Below are positions 14,009-62,210 of a stretch of 64,000 nt of DNA, one piece after another; position 1 is the stretch's first letter; each line of letters opens with the position of its first letter. The notes under the pieces were generated by a model that saw nothing but the letters and a program-made list of their open reading frames with translations, searched no databases and was not told the origin of the DNA. The stretch lies in assembly GCA_030426085.1 (NCBI GenBank), contig JAUHYW010000012.1, positions 2,425 through 66,424 of the forward strand. The letters run 5' to 3'. The DNA is from a bacterium (GTDB lineage Bacteria > Myxococcota_A > Bradymonadia > UBA7976 > UBA1532). A program made the translations under genes and the position numbers.

Positions 14009-14534
14009 CGGGTTCTCCCCCCACCGTCAGACGACGGCGATGCGCGCGCCCTATACGCCGGTGGGGTCGGGCGCGCAAGAGAATCGAGGGTCGCGTAGTG
14101 GGTTATTTTGATTTGGCCCCGTCCCTGGCCGTCAAGCCGCTGACGACACAGCCCCCTGTAGCAGCCGATAGATCGTCGTCCTCCCTGGCGTGAGCCTCCC
14201 GTCTCGCAGCCGTGATCTCGGCCGCTCGTCCTGCTCTGGCTCTGTCTGCGTATCCGAGTCCGAGATGCCGTGAGGATACCCCCGGCATGAATCGTCGGAA
14301 TACCTCGGCGGGTCAAGTGCGGCACCGCACTGCATACAGTACGATTTCGTTTCGAGTACGCCGCTCCGGTCGCCATGGTCGAGTTCGACCCGGCGGGGGA
14401 CCCCGAGGAAAGAGCCACTGAAGCCGGGATCGTCGGGCTGCGGAGCGGGCACCGCGCGGCCGGCGGACACGTTTTCTTCGCGATTCATGCGAAATTTGTG
14501 CATATTCGGCAATGAAACTGCATGAGGGGCGCGC

Positions 14535-15848
14535 ATGCTGCTCGAATTTCGGGTCGCCAACTTTCGGTCGTTCGCCGAGGAACAGGTTTTCTCGTTCGTG
14601 GCCGACAAGGACGACACGCACCTGGAGAACACCATGGAGTGTGAGCAGTCGCCCACTGGACGGGTGACTCGGCTTGCGGTGCTATACGGACCCAACGGCG
14701 GCGGAAAGAGCGCGCTGGTGCGGGCGATTGCCGCGATGCAGGGCATGGTCGTCAACTCCGCGCGGTGGCAGGAGGGCGATCGGCTGATGAGCCTCGAGCC
14801 GTTCAAGTTGGACGCTGCGCTCGCGCATGCGCCGTGCCGGTTTGAAGCGACGTTCGTGGCTGATTGGGCCGACCCCGAAGACCCAGAGACCGTCCGGCCT
14901 GTCCGCTACCAGTACGGCTTTTCGGCGGATGTCGAGCGCGTTGACGAGGAGTGGCTGCTGGCCTACCCCCACGGTCAGCCCCAGACTTGGTTCGAGCGCG
15001 ACCCGGACGGGTTCGACTTCGGTCGGCATTTGCGGGGCGAGAAGAAGCGGATCGCCGATGCGACGCGCAGCAACGCGCTCTTCTTGTCGGTGGCGGCGCA
15101 GCAGAACCAACAGCATCTCCTACCCGTCTTTCGTTGGTTGCGGACCCACCTCATGGCCATCGGTGTCGCCGGGGAGCAAGAACTCGGTGACCCGGTGATT
15201 CGGCGGAGGCCGCTCGCTTCGGCTCGCACCAACGTAGCCCTTGATAAGGGTCACGACGAAGCCAGGAAGTACATCGTCGACTTTCTGCGAGAGGCGGATG
15301 TCGGCATCGATGACATCCGCCTGGAACGCAGCCGCTTCGACGCCGCGTCGCTGCCCCCGGGGTTCCCACCTGAGCTGAAGGCGCTGGTGGTGGAGCAGCA
15401 AGAAGAGAGGGAGATGGTCGAGGTCCGCACTGTGCACCGGGGTCGCCATGGTGAGCCCGTCGAGTGGAATCTGTCCGACGAGTCCGAGGGCACCCAGAAC
15501 CTGTATTGCCTGCTGGGTCCCTGGCTGGAGACGGTGTTCTTCGAACGATCTGCGTTCTTCGACGAATTGTTCAGCGATCTGCACCCGGTCCTCGCCCGAC
15601 GGCTGCTGGAGCGCTTCTGCAAGGAAGGCAGCAAGGGTCAGGTGCTGCTGACCACCCACGATACGAACCTGCTCGACTCGAATCTGCTTCGGCGCGATCA
15701 GGTCTGGTTCGTCGAGAAGAACCCCGACGGCGCCTCGCGGCTCTACTCGATGCTCGAATACCGTCCGCGCAAGGGCGAGAACTTCGAAAAGGGCTACCTC
15801 GCCGGCCGCTATGGCGCGCTGCCGTTCATCGGCGACGTGAGGTTCTGA
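14535..15848 (+). CDS. AAA_21/ABC-type ATPase, AbiLi / AriA-like (the ATPase half of a split OLD-family system)
   Basis: 437 aa. N-terminal LEFRVANFRSFAEE, the SMC/RecF-like head beta-strand, then Walker A LYGPNGGGKSALVRAI. The C-terminus has QVLLTTHDTNLLD, a Walker B/D-loop-like H-loop. GC is about 60-63%, markedly lower than the flanking genes. Confidence 0.75.
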   Translation: MLLEFRVANFRSFAEEQVFSFVADKDDTHLENTMECEQSPTGRVTRLAVLYGPNGGGKSALVRAIAAMQGMVVNSARWQEGDRLMSLEPFKLDAALAHAPCRFEATFVADWADPEDPETVRPVRYQYGFSADVERVDEEWLLAYPHGQPQTWFERDPDGFDFGRHLRGEKKRIADATRSNALFLSVAAQQNQQHLLPVFRWLRTHLMAIGVAGEQELGDPVIRRRPLASARTNVALDKGHDEARKYIVDFLREADVGIDDIRLERSRFDAASLPPGFPPELKALVVEQQEEREMVEVRTVHRGRHGEPVEWNLSDESEGTQNLYCLLGPWLETVFFERSAFFDELFSDLHPVLARRLLERFCKEGSKGQVLLTTHDTNLLDSNLLRRDQVWFVEKNPDGASRLYSMLEYRPRKGENFEKGYLAGRYGALPFIGDVRF

Positions 15849-16471
15849 TGCCTCGGGGCAGACGGGCACGCGGCAAGGGCAACCTGGGCCGCAACAAGGG
15901 CAACCGCAGCGGCCGACGCATCTTGATCGTCTGCGAGGGCAGCGAGACCGAGCCCCGCTACTTCCGGGCGCTGCGCGCCGAGCTGAAGCTGGGGGCTGTC
16001 GATATCCAGGTCGAGGGCGAGAATTGCGAGAGCGCACCGATCTCGGTCGTGGACTACGCGCTGGAGTTGAAGGCACGCGCGCGCCGCCAGGTGCCCTACG
16101 ACGCGGTGTGGTGCGTCATCGACCGGGACAACCACGAGAGCTTCGATCGGGCGATCGACAAGGCCGCCGCCCATGGCATCGCGGTGGCCGCCTCGGTCCG
16201 CCAGTTCGAGGTCTGGCTCCTGCTGCATTTCGTCTACAGCACCCGGTCGTGGCCCGACGGCGACAGCCTGCTCAAAGCCCTGGCCGAGCACCTGCCGGAC
16301 TACGCCAAGAATACGGACGTCGCCGGGACACTGCAGCTGCGGCGGCCCACGGCGATGACTCACGCCGAGCGGCTGCGGACCCACAACGCCGAGGTGCACG
16401 ACGCGCGCCACCCCAACCCGATGACCGATGTGGACCTCCTCGTCGGCTTCCTCGTCCGCCTCAAGCCCTGA
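15848..16471 (+). CDS. RloB-like Toprim-domain protein, AbiLii / AriB-like (nuclease half of the split OLD-family system)
   Basis: 207 aa. Start overlaps the upstream stop as TGATG. N-terminus RILIVCEGSETEPRYFRAL is the RloB/OLD Toprim signature (catalytic Glu in CEG). Downstream acidic residues in VWCVIDRDNH. Confidence 0.7.
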   Translation: MPRGRRARGKGNLGRNKGNRSGRRILIVCEGSETEPRYFRALRAELKLGAVDIQVEGENCESAPISVVDYALELKARARRQVPYDAVWCVIDRDNHESFDRAIDKAAAHGIAVAASVRQFEVWLLLHFVYSTRSWPDGDSLLKALAEHLPDYAKNTDVAGTLQLRRPTAMTHAERLRTHNAEVHDARHPNPMTDVDLLVGFLVRLKP

Positions 16472-16649
16472 GAGCTTTCCCACAATCTCCGGCGCTTCGC
16501 CCAGCACGGTCCCGTTCGCCGAGCTCGGCGTTGACCCGTCAGAGGACTGGAGGGTTGAGGACCGCTCGGGCTGGCCCGGAATCGAAATGCCCCACCACCG
16601 AGGGTCGGGCCCGGTGAAATCGGGGTGACGGCCCGCGAGGGCGCCCCGG

Positions 16650-47918: not shown

Positions 47919-49697
47919 GTGCCCCAGAAGCCACTCGACGTCACCCCCATCGACCCGCCCGAGCGCCGCCCCCAGCGGGGCGCCCGATTCGCCGCGCCCG
48001 GCGAGCGCAAGACCCGCTACACGCTGCCCGATGCGCTGCGCTCGACCTCGCCGGTGGGCTACCGCACCCGGGTCCCGCTGACCCGGGACGAGGCGGCGCA
48101 GGCGCTGCATTTGCTGTCGATGCCCCGCCCCACCGGCTTCGGCGAACCCCGCCCGATCAGCGAAGGCGCGCTCTTCGAAGAGTGCAGCCTGGGCGTGCTC
48201 TCGGCCCGGCAGTCGACCAACTACCGCGGCTTCCGCCAGATCACGCTCGGCCCCGACCGTCAGGCCGAGGTCGCCGGGCTGCTGCGCCGGCTGGACGGCG
48301 TCGAGGCCCCGCCGCTCGACGGCGCGAGCCACTGCCACCTCGTGCTGGGGCGGCCCTATCGCAACCCGTTCACGCTGCTGCTGACGCTGGTGGGGCACCG
48401 CCCGCTGACCAGCCTCGCCACGGTCGCACTGCGCGCGATCCGCAAGCGCACGCAGTTCATCGACGACATCCCGACCATCGGCTACCTGCCCCACCTGCAC
48501 GTCGGCATCCTGGCCGACGCGATGGAGCGGGCGGCGGTCATTGCCTCGGCCGGCGAGCGGCGGGCGGTGGCCTACATGCGGCCGTTCGTCGACGGGGCGG
48601 CGAAGCGCAACGCCAAAGCCATCCGGGCGCTGGAGGCGCTGTGCGGGCTGAGCCTGCGCGACCGGCTCGCCGGCTGGCGGCTGGTGCTGGTGACCCAGAC
48701 CGGGGCCGCCCTGCCCGCGGAGCGCATCGACCTGCCCGCGCCGACCGCGCGCAAGCTGGGCGCCAACCTGCTCGCGTTCCGCAGCGAGCGCATCCAGCCG
48801 GGGGTCAACCAGGAGGAGTCCGCGCCGGCCCCCTACCAGCTCCGCCAGGGCATGGACGTGCCCGAGAAGCTGGTCGAGATGGCCGGGCGGGCGGCGTACA
48901 ACGCGTTCGAGCACTGGACCGGCCTCGACCGCGAGCTGGCCCGGCGGCTGCTGATGCTCGACCGGGTCGACGTGCTGACCCCCGGGGGCAAAGCCCGGCT
49001 GCGGGCCATCCGGGGCGAGCTCAACGCCATCACCGACCGGGTCGTCGCCGAGATGCCGACCTGGGCCGACCTGCCCACCGGGCGCGCGTTCAGCCGCAAT
49101 GCCGAGCGGGGGCGCAAGGCGTTCGCGCTCGTCGGCCAGCGGATCTACATCGGCGGGCTGTCGAAGGCCGAGATGGCCGACAACGGCCTCGACTGGCACG
49201 CCGCCGTCCGGGCCTTCGGCGCCGCTGCGGCCCGGGGTGCGCTCGTCGCCGAGCTCATGGGCGTCGTCGATCTGCCCGACGACTGCGACCTGCTCGCCGG
49301 GATCTGCCTCATGGCCGGCCCGGTGAACCAGAACGACATCGGCAAACAGTACTACGGCTACGCCGACCTGCTCGGGGGCACCTTCCCCGAGCGCGACCCG
49401 ACCTCGCTGCTGGTGTGGACCCTCAAGGCCAAGACGGTCGCCGATCCCATCGGCAACGAGGAGCAGCTCCTCAACCCCGAGCGCAAGGGCGCCCTGGTCG
49501 ACCTGCGCCCCGGGCCGCACGAGGTGATCGAGGTCGAGCGCGGCGGCGGGCGTCAGCCCATGCGGCAGGCGGGCGAGCGGACCAATACCGAGCGGGCGTT
49601 CGGCGACGTGGGCAACTTCGTCACCGACCCCGAGGGCCGCCCGATCGACGGCAACGACGGCGCCCCGTGGCCCGAGCGGGACACGACGGTCTGGTAG
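47919..49697 (+). CDS. Hypothetical protein, 592 aa, no recognisable domain
   Basis: GTG start with a GGGAGG RBS 5 nt upstream. Strong GC3 bias throughout. The long antisense ORF 47712-49520 is its shadow. Confidence 0.5.
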
Positions 49698-50363: not shown

Positions 50364-50699
50364 ATCGATGGCTCCCGATGGTTGAGCCGGCAGGCTATCA
50401 CCGAGCCGCCGGCCGCGCCAGAATCCGGGGTGCGGCGCCGAGGCCGGGGCGCGATTCCGGCCGGCGCCTGCGGGCGGGGCGTGGATGGGTCCGCCGCTGT
50501 GCATGGCCCCCGGCATCGGGCGGAAGGGCGCCATCATCAGATATGGGTATGCCATCCGAGATGGCATCTCGCTGCCTTCCGGAGCCCGATTCCGAGCCTC
50601 ACCCCGTGCGGTGTTTCGCCGGTTCATCTCACGATTCTGCGCAACAACCGCTCCGGCTGATCGATGAGCCCTTCGAGACCACTTCTCTCGGAGGCGCCG

Positions 50700-51644
50700 A
50701 TGCCCCGCCCGCTGATGTTCGTCCCCCGGCCCTGGACCCCGTTCGAAATCACGATGCGCTGCATGCACAGCCGCCTGCTGATGCGGCCGGGCGACGAATG
50801 CAGCCGGCGGGTGCTGGGCGTGATCGGGCGGGCGCTGGAGCTGTACGGCGCGCATGTGCACCTGTACTTCGCGGGGGGCACGAGCAACCACCTGCATATC
50901 GTGGCGGCGTTCGAGAGCGCCGAGTGGAAGGCGCGGTTCAAGTGCCACATCAAGGCCAACATCTCGAAGGAGCTGGGCGAGCTGTTCGACTGGCCGGGCT
51001 GCTATTGGGACCGGCGCACGCGGGACATCGCGATCCTGGACGACGGCGCCTTGGCGGATCGGCTGGCTTACCTGGCTGCGCACGGGGTGAAAGAGGGTTT
51101 GGTCGAGACTCCGGGTTGCTGGCCCGGGATCCAGTGGGTGCGGGCGGTGACGGAGGGCCGGCCGCTGGTGGGGGTGTGGTACGACCGCAGCCGGCTATGT
51201 GCGTTGCGGCAGCGGTGGACGCAGGGCGGACGGCGCGGTCCGAAGCCGACGCTGGGCGACGTGGCGCTGCGCAAGGTGGTCCGGTTGACGCCGCCGCCGA
51301 TGTGGGCCGGGTTGGGAGAGGACGTGCTGCGGGCGAAGTGGGTCGAGCTGGTGGAGCTGGCGGTGGAGCGGCATCCGGCGCCGTGGCCGACGCGGGTGGT
51401 GGGGGCGGCGGCGCTGGTGGAGATGGACCCGCATACCCGGCCGCCGCAGACGAAGAAGTCGCCGGCGCCGCGGGTGCACACGCGGTGCAAGACACTGCGG
51501 AGGGCGTGGGGCGAGGCGTACGATGCGTTCGTGGCGGCGTACCGGGCGGCGCTGCACGCGCTGCGGGAGGGGTGGGAGGCGGTGGGGTTCCCGGAGGAGG
51601 GTTGCCGGCCGGCGGTGCTGCTGCCGGAGGCGGGCGGGGGGTAG
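50700..51644 (+). CDS. HUH/Y1 transposase-like protein (IS200/RAYT-like superfamily, long form)
   Basis: NHLHIVAAFESAEWKARFKCHIKANISKE parallels the IS200 TnpA block DHVHLLISIPPKYSISKLVQYLKGKSS, including the HuH motif. FDWPGCYWDRR parallels HLWGGHFWARGYF. An alternative start is at 50664. Probably domesticated or longer than canonical TnpA. Confidence 0.4.
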   Translation: MPRPLMFVPRPWTPFEITMRCMHSRLLMRPGDECSRRVLGVIGRALELYGAHVHLYFAGGTSNHLHIVAAFESAEWKARFKCHIKANISKELGELFDWPGCYWDRRTRDIAILDDGALADRLAYLAAHGVKEGLVETPGCWPGIQWVRAVTEGRPLVGVWYDRSRLCALRQRWTQGGRRGPKPTLGDVALRKVVRLTPPPMWAGLGEDVLRAKWVELVELAVERHPAPWPTRVVGAAALVEMDPHTRPPQTKKSPAPRVHTRCKTLRRAWGEAYDAFVAAYRAALHALREGWEAVGFPEEGCRPAVLLPEAGGG

Positions 51645-51837
51645 CGCGCGGCGGGCTCGCGCAAGCGTGAGCAGGATTCGGGTTGGCGGGGCGCCGGGGT
51701 CGGGCGTGTGGGGGAGGTGCGCTCTGTCACGGGCGCGGTCGCCGTCGGGCAGCGGAGGCGGTGTCTCGGTGTGGCCGGGAAGGGCTCGGGAGGGGGACAG
51801 ATATCCGAGTTCGACACTCGGCTACCCCTCCGCTCGG

Positions 51838-61576: not shown

Positions 61577-62122
61577 TCAGCGGGGGGCGTAGACCGTGCG
61601 CCGATCACCCGCCTCGAGGGGCCAGCGGTCGACCCCTACAAACGTGTCGGGGCCCGCCGCCGGCCCGACGCCCCCGACCACCCGGTAGTGCTCGATGGCG
61701 AGCACCGCGCACTTGGCGGTGCACTTGGGGTCGATGACGAGCTTCAGGGCGCTGTCGGCGACCCCGTCCGAGGGTCGGGACCAGATGTGCCCCCGCTTGA
61801 GCCAGTGTGGCCCGTCGAGGAGCTCGGTGCTCGGCCACAGGGCGCGGGCGTCGAGCGGCGGCAGACCCTGGTAGACCGTCGAGCGCATCGTGAGCGACCC
61901 GCCGAGCGCCGCCGGGGAGATCGTGCCCCGTACGTAGAGCGCGCCCGTCTTCGTCACCGACCACACCTCGGCGACGACCTCACGCTCGTCACATGGGCCG
62001 TCGGTCTCGATGACGTGGCGCAGCACCATGCCCTCCAGACCCCCGGTGAGCTGAGCCGAAGCCGGCGCCGCCAGGCTACAGATGCCGATGATGATGCTGA
62101 TACAAATGGTGAAATAGGTCAT
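61577..62122 (-). CDS. Secreted hypothetical protein
   Basis: 181 aa from ATG at 62120-62122. Signal peptide MTYFTICISIIIGICSLAAPASA encoded by unusually AT-rich codons. No recognisable domain. Confidence 0.4.
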   Translation of the reverse strand: MTYFTICISIIIGICSLAAPASAQLTGGLEGMVLRHVIETDGPCDEREVVAEVWSVTKTGALYVRGTISPAALGGSLTMRSTVYQGLPPLDARALWPSTELLDGPHWLKRGHIWSRPSDGVADSALKLVIDPKCTAKCAVLAIEHYRVVGGVGPAAGPDTFVGVDRWPLEAGDRRTVYAPR

Positions 62123-62210
62123 TACTCTGTCTCCTGCGGCGCACATAGCTCTAGTAACGCAATTGACGTTACGACCGTCACTTTTTATGGTGTTGGAAAA
62201 TTTCTCCACT

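Follow-up and report, generated by a model that had tools for sequence, protein, structure and literature searches.

Two genes that overlap by a single base lie in an intergenic slot of a Myxococcota chromosome, between a Peptidase_C92 gene and an ATP-grasp operon, and raise the questions of what kind of module they encode and how that module came to lie there. The window, i.e. the whole stretch of DNA analysed, is 64 kb long and was assigned to Myxococcota from homologues of the flanking gene. Judged from profile matches, the pair is an AbiL-type two-gene module, a member of a known and very common family and not a new system. It is carried on a 2,505-bp transposase-less IS1-type unit (14094-16598), which, with its flanking duplication, is laid out as follows.

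14085..14093, unstranded: left copy of the target-site duplication, CGAGGGTCG, single in the related contig L093 and present twice in the window, flanking the insert
14094..14113, plus strand: left terminal inverted repeat, (C)GTAGTGGGTTATTTTGATT, a match to GTRGTGGGNNATTTYGATT
14114..14534, plus strand: leader within the cassette, 421 nt, 64% GC
14132-14489, minus strand: orphan ORF, 118 aa, weak coding signal (codon-position GC 0.68/0.57/0.72)
14535..15848, plus strand: abiLi, ATG start, 437 aa, SMC/Rad50-type ABC ATPase
15848..16471, plus strand: abiLii, 207 aa, RloB-family protein, predicted Toprim-like nuclease
16472..16579, plus strand: 3' spacer within the cassette, 108 nt, read from the sequence
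16580..16598, minus strand: right terminal inverted repeat, GTGGTGGGGCATTTCGATT in minus-strand reading, 15 of 19 bases as in the left repeat
16599..16607, unstranded: right copy of the target-site duplication, CGAGGGTCG, followed by GGCCCGGTGAAATCGGGGTGACGG

The gene pair and its family

The first-pass annotation had described two translationally coupled genes sharing TGATG, and the ORF coordinates agree: the abiLi stop and the abiLii start overlap by one base at 15846-15850. The abiLii frame is open from 15464, and the ATG at 15848 yields the 207-aa protein. Purine runs (GAGG/AGG) are found 5' of both starts, and both ORFs are intact and full length with all catalytic residues present. Of 59 homologous pairs in other genomes, 48 have this one-base overlap (TGATG or TAATG), which is therefore not a product of chance.

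The AbiL identity proposed from the letters was recovered in profile searches. AbiLi was matched by the PADLOC AbiLi profile (1.2e-84) and by Pfam AAA_21 (1.2e-23), and AbiLii by Pfam RloB (1.5e-41, profile positions 1-193 of 195) and, as its sole PADLOC match, by AbiLii (3.4e-23); NCBIfam gave no informative family for either protein. The two genes adjoin each other in one orientation, the ATPase gene leading, as in AbiL of Lactococcus lactis pND861, where two co-oriented genes likewise encode an AAA_21-type ABC ATPase and then an RloB-family protein. This likeness is at the level of the PADLOC AbiL profiles, which both proteins match; the lactococcal system is on a plasmid, whereas the pair described here is chromosomal, in a 74% GC Myxococcota genome and on an IS1-type cassette.

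Members of the RloB family amount to 14,029 cluster representatives, and RloB is encoded directly downstream of AbiLi in 75 of 80 AbiLi loci. Relatives of the module were found in 149 plasmid records and a few phages, as well as in other Myxococcota (e.g. a Haliangium protein); homology with three clade relatives (L001, L084 and L094) ends at the ORF boundaries. AbiL is already counted among the defence systems that combine an ABC ATPase with a TOPRIM protein (PMC11464382, PMC13064643).

An earlier comparison with PARIS (AriA/AriB) stood in part. Both systems have an ABC ATPase and a small Toprim-type effector as separate proteins, and AbiLi is matched by the AriA profile at 1.6e-22, far more weakly than by AbiLi and as a domain-level likeness only. 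The effector of PARIS is DUF4435 (AriB), whereas that encoded here is RloB (PF13707). Identity with PARIS was rejected, since AbiLii has no DUF4435 or AriB match and none of 40 family members matches DUF4435. A 2026 review likewise reports no significant sequence similarity and poor structural superposition between AbiLii and AriB (PMC13064643). In the OLD nucleases (P2 Old, Ts OLD, Bp OLD) and Gabija GajA, unlike in the pair studied here, a single fused polypeptide carries the domains; the helical domain that bears the catalytic lysine in OLD is absent from RloB, and the two showed no profile-level match.

The RloB family was named from hsd loci (PMC10440598), and the pair could be read as an accessory of a type I restriction-modification system, like RloA/RloB in Campylobacter hsd loci. 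Among 109 neighbouring genes in other genomes, Methylase_S occurs twice and Eco57I or ResIII a few times, but no such family is common across these neighbours, and no hsd gene adjoins the pair here, which is surrounded by ATP-grasp, esterase and Peptidase_C92 genes. At this locus the reading is very improbable and close to refuted.

The GC content of abiLi is 63.9%, in keeping with the low-GC islet described at first, but abiLii has 68.9% instead of the claimed 60-63% and the upstream flanking gene 68.2% instead of 70% or more. Third-codon-position GC is the clearer compositional signal, at 0.813 for abiLi and 0.913 for abiLii against 0.964 +/- 0.008 in host genes (n=14). Of all 1-kb bins in the window, the two covering 14-16 kb have the lowest GC (0.645 and 0.646).

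AbiLi and AbiLii

All motifs quoted in the first-pass annotation were found. In AbiLi these are MLLEFRVANFRSF, YGPNGGGKS (K58; Walker A G52-S59) and LLTTHD, which contains the H-loop H375. Q126, the signature E316-S317-x-G319-T320, Walker B D343-E344 and H350 were also located, so that the first protein is an AbiLi-type AAA_21/AAA_15 ABC ATPase with intact Walker A, Walker B, signature and H-loop. The AF2 model (pLDDT 87.4) was matched by Foldseek to the heads of SMC, Rad50, PtuA and Ts OLD with E values of 1e-11 to 1e-9. In an alignment of 36 sequences, from which the invariant columns were read, the C-terminal tail Y421...P430 is invariant; it is predicted to be disordered.

In AbiLii the quoted motif RILIVCEGSETEPRYF corresponds to residues 24-39 and follows a basic, disordered N-terminus (residues 1-23). 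Key residues are E30, E35, D85, D92-x-D94, S116, E121 and H127. The Toprim reading had been made to depend on an RloB match and on conserved acidic residues; besides the RloB match given above, the acidic residues E30, E35, D92, D94 and E121 of RloB are kept. A Toprim nuclease is defined by a Glu after beta-1 and a DxD after beta-3 (PMC6755086). AbiLii has strands at 24-29, 52-56, 86-93 and 112-117 with intervening helices, forming a four-stranded parallel beta/alpha core; E30 follows strand 24-29 and D92-R-D94 lies at the end of strand 86-93. In the OLD Toprim site two metals are bound through E, E, DxD and T/E residues (PMC6755086), and the RloB residues run in the same order as these. E35, kept in 90% or more of the sequences, and the invariant S116 and E121 correspond, in sequence order only, to the extra metal-B ligands (E404-like and T506/E508-like).

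Profile-level searches gave no independent Toprim link. Alignment of RloB to P2 Old with hhalign had a probability of 0.2, no Toprim family came up when 40 RloB members were scanned against Pfam at E <= 10, Foldseek against PDB gave nothing significant for an RloB/Toprim relationship, and PDB sequence searches with both proteins and the RloB profile recovered only spurious de novo helical proteins. AbiLii is a predicted Toprim-like nuclease.

Where at least 90% of the family members have a conserved glycine after beta-2, AbiLii has Glu61. This substitution, the partial drift of abiLii GC3 toward host values and an empty promoter scan of the leader would suit a decaying or inactive copy, a passenger in a dead cassette. 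This is rather unlikely: neither ORF is truncated and no catalytic residue is missing, identical sequences were found in three further metagenome contigs, and the homologue P0019 also has Glu at the Glu61 position.

The cassette and its insertion site

The target-site duplication measures 8-9 bp, being the 8 bp GAGGGTCG if the first base of the element is 14094. The inverted repeats at 14095-14113 and 16580-16598 agree at 15 of 19 positions (binomial P of at least 15/19 at a fixed position ~1.5e-5). In the window GTRGTGGGNNATTTYGATT was matched only at the two cassette ends, with 0 matches expected (100 shuffles). The left repeat is one base off GTAGTGGGTCATTTTGATT, the commonest metagenome variant among the matches listed, and its terminal base deviates from the consensus of the repeat family. 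A generic repeat finder missed the cassette ends, the arms being imperfect and the direct repeat shorter than 12 nt.

The interior of the cassette was scanned for further features. No sigma-70-like promoter site or Rfam match was found in the leader, no Pfam match for the orphan ORF, no terminator-like site on the plus strand of the 3' spacer, and no transposase ORF inside the cassette. The islet has no integrase, and the only tRNA, tRNA-His at 51735, is far off. The leader region is not conserved in L001, L084 and L094, and the cassette repeats are absent around the AbiL pairs of these three relatives.

The first-pass annotation had proposed a presence/absence comparison with relatives, and its outcome was decisive. 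In the metagenome contig L093 both flanks are 98.6-99.4% identical, the cassette with its gene pair is absent, and a single copy of CGAGGGTCG is directly followed by GGCCCGGTGAAATCGGGGTGACGG. The duplication and the inverted repeats are located exactly at the junctions where homology with L093 breaks off. In L092 and L093 the same slot is occupied by a TIR_2 and SLOG gene, in L091 by a CN_hydrolase-like gene with a 255-aa gene; the TIR-SLOG insertion point in L093 is 24 nt from that of the cassette, so the AbiL and TIR-SLOG cargos are not alleles of one exchange.

The earlier statement that no other defence genes lie nearby holds for the window, where the PADLOC matches among the 35 other ORFs are kinase domains only. 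Matches to PD-T4-6, mad6 and MkoA were rejected as defence genes, all of them coming from four Ser/Thr kinase domains.

The cassette repeat, GGTAGTGGGYYATTTTGATT, defines an element family that is widespread in metagenomes, although no named insertion sequence matched this lineage. The metagenome scan by repeat pattern was noisy and its figures cover the matches listed, among which inverted pairs of the repeat span 410-3329 bp and are accompanied by 8-bp duplications. A full-length member (L189), with these repeats and a duplication of 8 bp, encodes a 276-aa protein whose matches to NF033558 (IS1 family, 1.4e-16) and IS1595 (1.5e-8) do not reach the curated cut-offs. Fragments that match DDE_Tnp_IS1 at ~1e-3 occur in L128 and L210. 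The cassette has inverted repeats at both ends, an 8-9-bp duplication with an empty site in a relative, and ends of a family in which the autonomous member has a gene for an IS1-family transposase. No IS1-family transposase was found in the window or in the related loci, and mobilisation in trans is a candidate route, as is thought for mobile insertion cassettes of the MIC231 type (PMC3129680). Those and passenger-carrying IS1595/IS1 relatives share with the present unit IS-type ends, a target duplication, passengers and the lack of a transposase; the ends here belong instead to the IS1-family lineage with GGTAGTGGGYYATTTTGATT, and the passenger is a defence module.

Homologous recombination between the flanks could also have brought the segment, the repeats being coincidental or relics without a role in its arrival. 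In its favour, the cargo of the slot differs among four related genomes, as would be expected where recombination drives a hotspot, the vicinity has no transposase and the repeats are imperfect. We consider this improbable, since the inverted repeats abut a duplication that coincides with the homology break against the 99%-identical L093, and elsewhere this repeat family comes with an IS1-family transposase and 8-bp duplications. Neither the inverted repeats and target duplication nor the hotspot context appear in the first-pass annotation; the vehicle is the new part.

Proposed mode of action

The probable explanation is that an intact AbiL module was transposed to this site on a non-autonomous IS1-family cassette, and that its products act as an ATPase-restrained nuclease that aborts infection. 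Counted against it are Glu61 in place of a near-invariant glycine, the missing promoter, repeats that agree at only 15 of 19 bases, a left terminal base off consensus, and the lack of an IS1-family transposase in the window or related loci. The defence role of this pair, as read from sequence, is a candidate function.

From PARIS and an RloB toxin-antitoxin pair we infer the following course. AbiLi, an SMC/Rad50-like ABC ATPase, would bind AbiLii, presumably a Toprim-like two-metal nuclease of the RloB type, and hold it inactive; the one-base overlap may help to fix the AbiLi:AbiLii ratio, and the invariant, predicted-disordered tail of AbiLi is a candidate docking peptide for AbiLii. AbiLi would respond to a cue from the phage, in concert with binding or hydrolysis of ATP, by freeing or activating AbiLii, which would then cut nucleic acid and so abort the infection. 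Its best-guess substrate, by analogy with PARIS, is RNA of the translation machinery, with DNA nearly as likely. PARIS, in which an ABC ATPase releases a Toprim tRNase, is the best-understood model of a sensor ATPase releasing a nuclease (PMC11464382). In Lactococcus, AbiL acts by abortive infection after phage transcription, and abortive-infection phage resistance by AbiL is known only for the lactococcal system (PMC13064643).

Alternatively, the AbiLi-AbiLii complex might work in an OLD/Gabija-like manner, as an ATP-regulated nuclease on phage (or host) DNA with no free RNase. This is possible but doubtful: the action of AbiL after phage transcription in Ceduovirus is a better fit to a translation target (PMC13064643), RNase M5 and AriB cut RNA with the same Toprim site (PMC6755086, PMC11464382), and a separate small effector is closer to PARIS than to fused OLD or GajA.

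The pair might also be a toxin-antitoxin (addiction) module, one that secures its own maintenance or that of its carrier and plays no part in defence against phages. The C. algidicarnis TOPRIM_OLD(D44, RloB-like):AAA(D29) pair (NetFlax) has the same two domains, and its RloB-type toxin was experimentally neutralised by its AAA ATPase; it belongs to a different phylum and no phage phenotype was reported (PMC10440598). Tight translational coupling suits stoichiometric neutralisation, and AbiL-type modules occur on many small mobilisable plasmids (3.5-5.3 kb), where addiction would pay. Toxicity in this family varies: F. nucleatum AbiLii was toxic in E. coli, but Dy et al. found lactococcal AbiLii non-toxic in E. 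coli and F. nucleatum AbiLi unable to neutralise its AbiLii (PMC3985639), so that the toxin-antitoxin logic is not universal. Moreover, lactococcal AbiL confers phage resistance (Deng 1999, as cited in PMC13064643), sister strains hold TIR-SLOG, a conflict-system type of gene, in the slot, and a single-copy chromosomal cassette needs no plasmid-style addiction. Addiction as the sole function is therefore unlikely, and toxin-antitoxin behaviour can in any case coexist with the abortive infection preferred here.

Significance

Taken alone, the module is one more AbiL homologue among thousands and changes little. The mechanism of AbiL is still undetermined (PMC13064643), and any tractable homologue could help to clarify it, the present copy having no special advantage. 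Its value is as a clean natural example, with an intact pair, exact junctions, a 99%-identical strain whose site is empty, and a TIR-SLOG insertion a few bases away, in which the turnover of defence genes is seen at single-nucleotide resolution in Myxococcota. It points to IS-derived cassettes as carriers of minimal defence systems. As a bolder and distinctly speculative extension, transposase-less IS1-family cassettes with GGTAGTGGGYYATTTTGATT might be a general shuttle of minimal defence modules into short intergenic hotspots, with the AbiLi tail as the latch that holds the RloB nuclease. If so, near-identical strains would vary in the small immune gene found between one and the same pair of core genes.

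Identification and composition of the gene pair

Both open reading frames were confirmed at the positions assigned in the first-pass annotation, as were the motifs quoted there (NFRSF, YGPNGGGKS and LLTTHD in the first, RILIVCEGSETEPRYF in the second).

14535-15848 (+), abiLi, AbiLi-type ABC ATPase gene, ATG start, 437 aa
15848-16471 (+), abiLii, RloB-family gene in the next frame, ATG at 15848, 207 aa

The one-base stop/start overlap is visible in gtgaggttcTGATGcct. Searches with PADLOC assigned protein 1 to AbiLi (1.2e-84), with AriA as a distant runner-up (1.6e-22), and gave AbiLii (3.4e-23) as the sole match of protein 2. In Pfam, the proteins matched AAA_21 (1.2e-23) and RloB (1.5e-41, nearly the full model covered), respectively. 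The AbiL identity proposed earlier was thus borne out; the module is not PARIS, and protein 2 matched neither DUF4435 nor AriB.

The pair had also been described as a low-GC islet. That was partly right. GC reaches its minimum for the window in the pair of 1-kb bins covering 14-16 kb, and abiLi has 63.9% GC, but abiLii has 68.9% rather than 60-63%, and the upstream host gene 68.2% rather than 70% or more. Third-position GC is the better separator: 0.813 for abiLi and 0.913 for abiLii versus 0.964 ± 0.008 in host genes (n = 14).

Conservation and structure models

Conservation of AbiLi was read from an alignment of 36 sequences. Invariant or near-invariant residues, all kept in the window copy, comprise Walker A G52, N54, G57, K58 and S59, Q126, the ABC signature E316, S317, G319 and T320, Walker B D343 and E344, H350, and the H-loop T374 and H375. 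The AlphaFold model (pLDDT 87.4) matched the heads of SMC, Rad50, Septu/retron PtuA and Thermus OLD at E-values of 1e-11 to 1e-9. In the C-terminal tail (residues 413-437, window 15771-15845; PRK...YLxGRYGALPF, unchanged across phyla), Y421, L422, G424, Y426, G427 and P430 are invariant despite a pLDDT below 50, as expected if the peptide became ordered only when bound to a partner. The tail is a candidate partner-binding peptide throughout the AbiLi family.

For RloB, 40 sequences were aligned. E30, D92, S116, E121 and H127 are invariant, E35, D85 and the glycine following the second strand are near-invariant, and most sequences have an acidic residue at the end of the D92-x-D/E motif. In the AbiLii model (pLDDT 90.3), strands 24-29, 52-56, 86-93 and 112-117 alternate with helices, E30 directly follows strand 1 and D92-R-D94 ends strand 3; this predicted layout is the Toprim one by the definition given in PMC6755086. 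By their order in the sequence, E35, S116 and E121 fall at the places of the Bp OLD metal-B residues E404, T506 and E508. The first-pass annotation had named an RloB/Toprim protein; the ATPase and RloB profile matches stood, but none of 40 RloB members matched a Toprim family in Pfam, hhalign of RloB against P2 Old was negative and Foldseek with the AbiLii model gave no significant match. The Toprim relationship could not be confirmed independently at the profile level.

Junctions of the cassette

Close relatives (contigs L091, L092 and L093) were reached via the 90% cluster of the flanking ATP-grasp gene. Orthologues of this gene in Nannocystis, Haliangium, Paraliomyxa and other Myxococcales share ~70% identity with it, which places the host in the Myxococcota. 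Elsewhere the window encodes housekeeping functions (GrpE, HrcA, RecA, CinA, GcvP and tRNA-synt_2, a class II tRNA synthetase). L093 is 98.6% identical to the window over 5.4 kb on one side and 99.4% over 5.9 kb on the other, and lacks the AbiL segment, so that the presence/absence polymorphism envisaged earlier was found. The window junctions read ...GAGAAT CGAGGGTCG c GTAGTGGGTTATTTTGATT ... AbiL ... AATCGAAATGCCCCACCAC CGAGGGTCG GGCCCGGTGAAATCG..., against ...GAGAAT CGAGGGTCG GGGCCGGTGAAATCG... in L093. This comparison delimits a 2,505-bp unit bounded by inverted repeats.

14094-16598, cassette carrying the AbiL pair
14132-14489 (-), orphan ORF in the cassette leader, 118 aa, ending ...GRTTIYRLLQGAVSSAA, HTH-like tail

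The 19-nt repeats agree at 15 positions (chance at a fixed position ~1.5e-5); the two cassette ends are their only matches in the window, against an expectation of none. CGAGGGTCG is duplicated, one copy on each side. No transposase lies within the unit, and no cognate one was found in the window or related loci. The orphan ORF, with weak coding signal and no Pfam match, may be what is left of a transposase or regulator that the element once encoded.

Element family

Metagenome contigs were scanned with the degenerate repeat. Although noisy, the scan showed that the repeat is not random: among the matches listed, two variants, GTAGTGGGTCATTTTGATT and GTAGTGGGCTATTTTGATT, made up 30 of 109 distinct-context hits, and of the 43 hits with the form GTAGTGGGnnATTTTGATT, counting all variants, 36 had a G in front. 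Also among the matches listed, inverted repeat pairs 410-3,329 bp apart occurred with 8-bp duplications in several contigs (CTCTGGAG in L128, CAATTTCG in L189; 7/8 bases agreeing in L158 and L184). Elements ending in the repeat GGTAGTGGGYYATTTTGATT and flanked by target duplications of 8 bp are widespread, from MITE-sized to 3.3 kb, and could not be linked to a named insertion sequence.

L189:9527-12855, 3.3-kb element copy
L128:268-2823, element copy
L210:335-1928, element copy
L154, L158 and L184, element copies of 410-618 bp

The 3.3-kb element carries an IS1-family transposase, a HARE-HTH and two ORFs without assigned function. Its 276-aa protein scored 1.4e-16 against the model for IS1-family transposases and 1.5e-8 against IS1595, neither match reaching the curated cut-off; fragments in L128 and L210 matched DDE_Tnp_IS1 weakly. 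Since it shares its repeat family with a member bearing an IS1-type transposase, the window unit is, judged from sequence, derived from an IS1-family element and carries passenger genes but no transposase, as in the 'mobile insertion cassette' type (PMC3129680).

Occupancy of the slot in relatives

The slot between the Peptidase_C92 gene and the ATP-grasp operon holds other genes in the relatives.

L093:5803-7818 (-), TIR_2 + SLOG-cluster-2 gene, 671 aa, window site 16608-16649
L092:5656-7851 (-), TIR_2 + SLOG-cluster-2 gene, 731 aa, same window site
L091:4940-7770 (-), 695-aa CN_hydrolase-like gene and 255-aa gene

The TIR-SLOG gene of L093 and of L092 (~88% nucleotide identity) is absent from the window slot; its start lies 24 nt away from the point where AbiL inserted. 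The two proteins are only 49% identical while the flanks agree at ~88% at the DNA level, which suggests fast turnover or diversifying selection. Neither L091 slot protein matched PADLOC, and the 255-aa protein matched no family. The slot is thus a small intergenic hotspot, and near-identical strains differ in the immune-type gene held there. A motif, GTGAAATCGNGGTGACGG (window 16608-16631 and equivalent sites in L091-L093), is conserved ahead of the ATP-grasp operon in each of the four relatives; by our reading the cassette now parts it from the operon, with 85 nt left before the start codon, and may alter regulation of the operon.

L091 and L001 belong to one MAG, which carries its AbiL genes (77% and 75% identical) at a different locus, abutting the orthologue of window gene 47919-49697, as in L084; L094, a fourth relative, has its pair in yet another context. 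In L001, L084 and L094, window homology ends at the AbiL ORF boundaries and abiLi GC3 is likewise depressed (0.71-0.83). Further features were recorded.

47919-49697 (+), 592 aa, no Pfam match; orthologue convergent with the AbiL pair, 6-19 nt away, in L001 and L084; followed in the window by a gene for a predicted beta-barrel outer-membrane protein in place of the pair
L001:9080-9892 (+), WYL + HTH_11 regulator (PADLOC WYL 5.9e-46) in the closest relative, preceding its AbiL pair by 108 nt, GC3 0.96, host-like; none beside the window's pair
50664-51644 (+), 326-aa ORF adjoining tRNA-His at 51735, no Pfam match
61577-62209 (-), 210-aa ORF, GC3 0.83, compositionally atypical, no Pfam match

Distribution of AbiL

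With clustering at 50%, the RloB profile retrieved 14,029 representatives, and for 9,639 the E-value was below 1e-10. AbiLi relatives are encoded in 479 stretches of species-representative genomes, from hosts including Desulfobacterota, Gamma- and Betaproteobacteria, Nitrospinota, Verrucomicrobiota, Chlamydiae and one archaeon. Among the best 80 loci, an RloB ORF is next downstream on the same strand in 75, and the identical single-base overlap (TGATG or TAATG) is present in 48 of 59 evaluable pairs. Relatives also occur on 149 plasmid records, many small and mobilisable, and on a few phage records. Neighbours are mixed, with scattered integrases, helicases, ParE and restriction components; no third gene recurs beside the pairs in other genomes. 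Five Methylotenera MAGs (L009, L019, L021, L046 and L055) carry the pair between ispG (GcpE) and hisS, reflecting either insertion at a conserved site or descent by vertical inheritance in the genus; in L009, L019, L021 and L046 the overlap is 11 bases instead of 1. AbiL is already counted among the ABC-ATPase + TOPRIM defence systems (PMC11464382), its mechanism being still open (PMC13064643). The pair is a very common, known and abundant system, to which the window copy adds a member.

Proposed mechanism and significance

Both AbiL proteins are intact, obligately paired, translationally coupled and borne on accessory DNA. By analogy, AbiLi would restrain AbiLii and sense infection, and AbiLii, once released or activated, would cleave nucleic acid, with RNA slightly ahead of DNA as substrate. 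This model draws on how PARIS works (PMC11464382) and on other published findings: an RloB-type toxin was shown by experiment to be neutralised by its AAA ATPase (PMC10440598), AbiLii from F. nucleatum is toxic (PMC3985639), and AbiL of Lactococcus acts at a stage later than phage transcription (PMC13064643). Two results speak against its generality: the lactococcal AbiLii was non-toxic in E. coli, and the AbiLi of F. nucleatum failed to neutralise its partner (PMC3985639).

With the module taken as AbiL rather than PARIS, the earlier observation and its reading as candidate anti-phage defence were judged right overall. Worth recording are the carrier, an apparent IS1-type cassette with exact junctions, and the site, a small intergenic hotspot.
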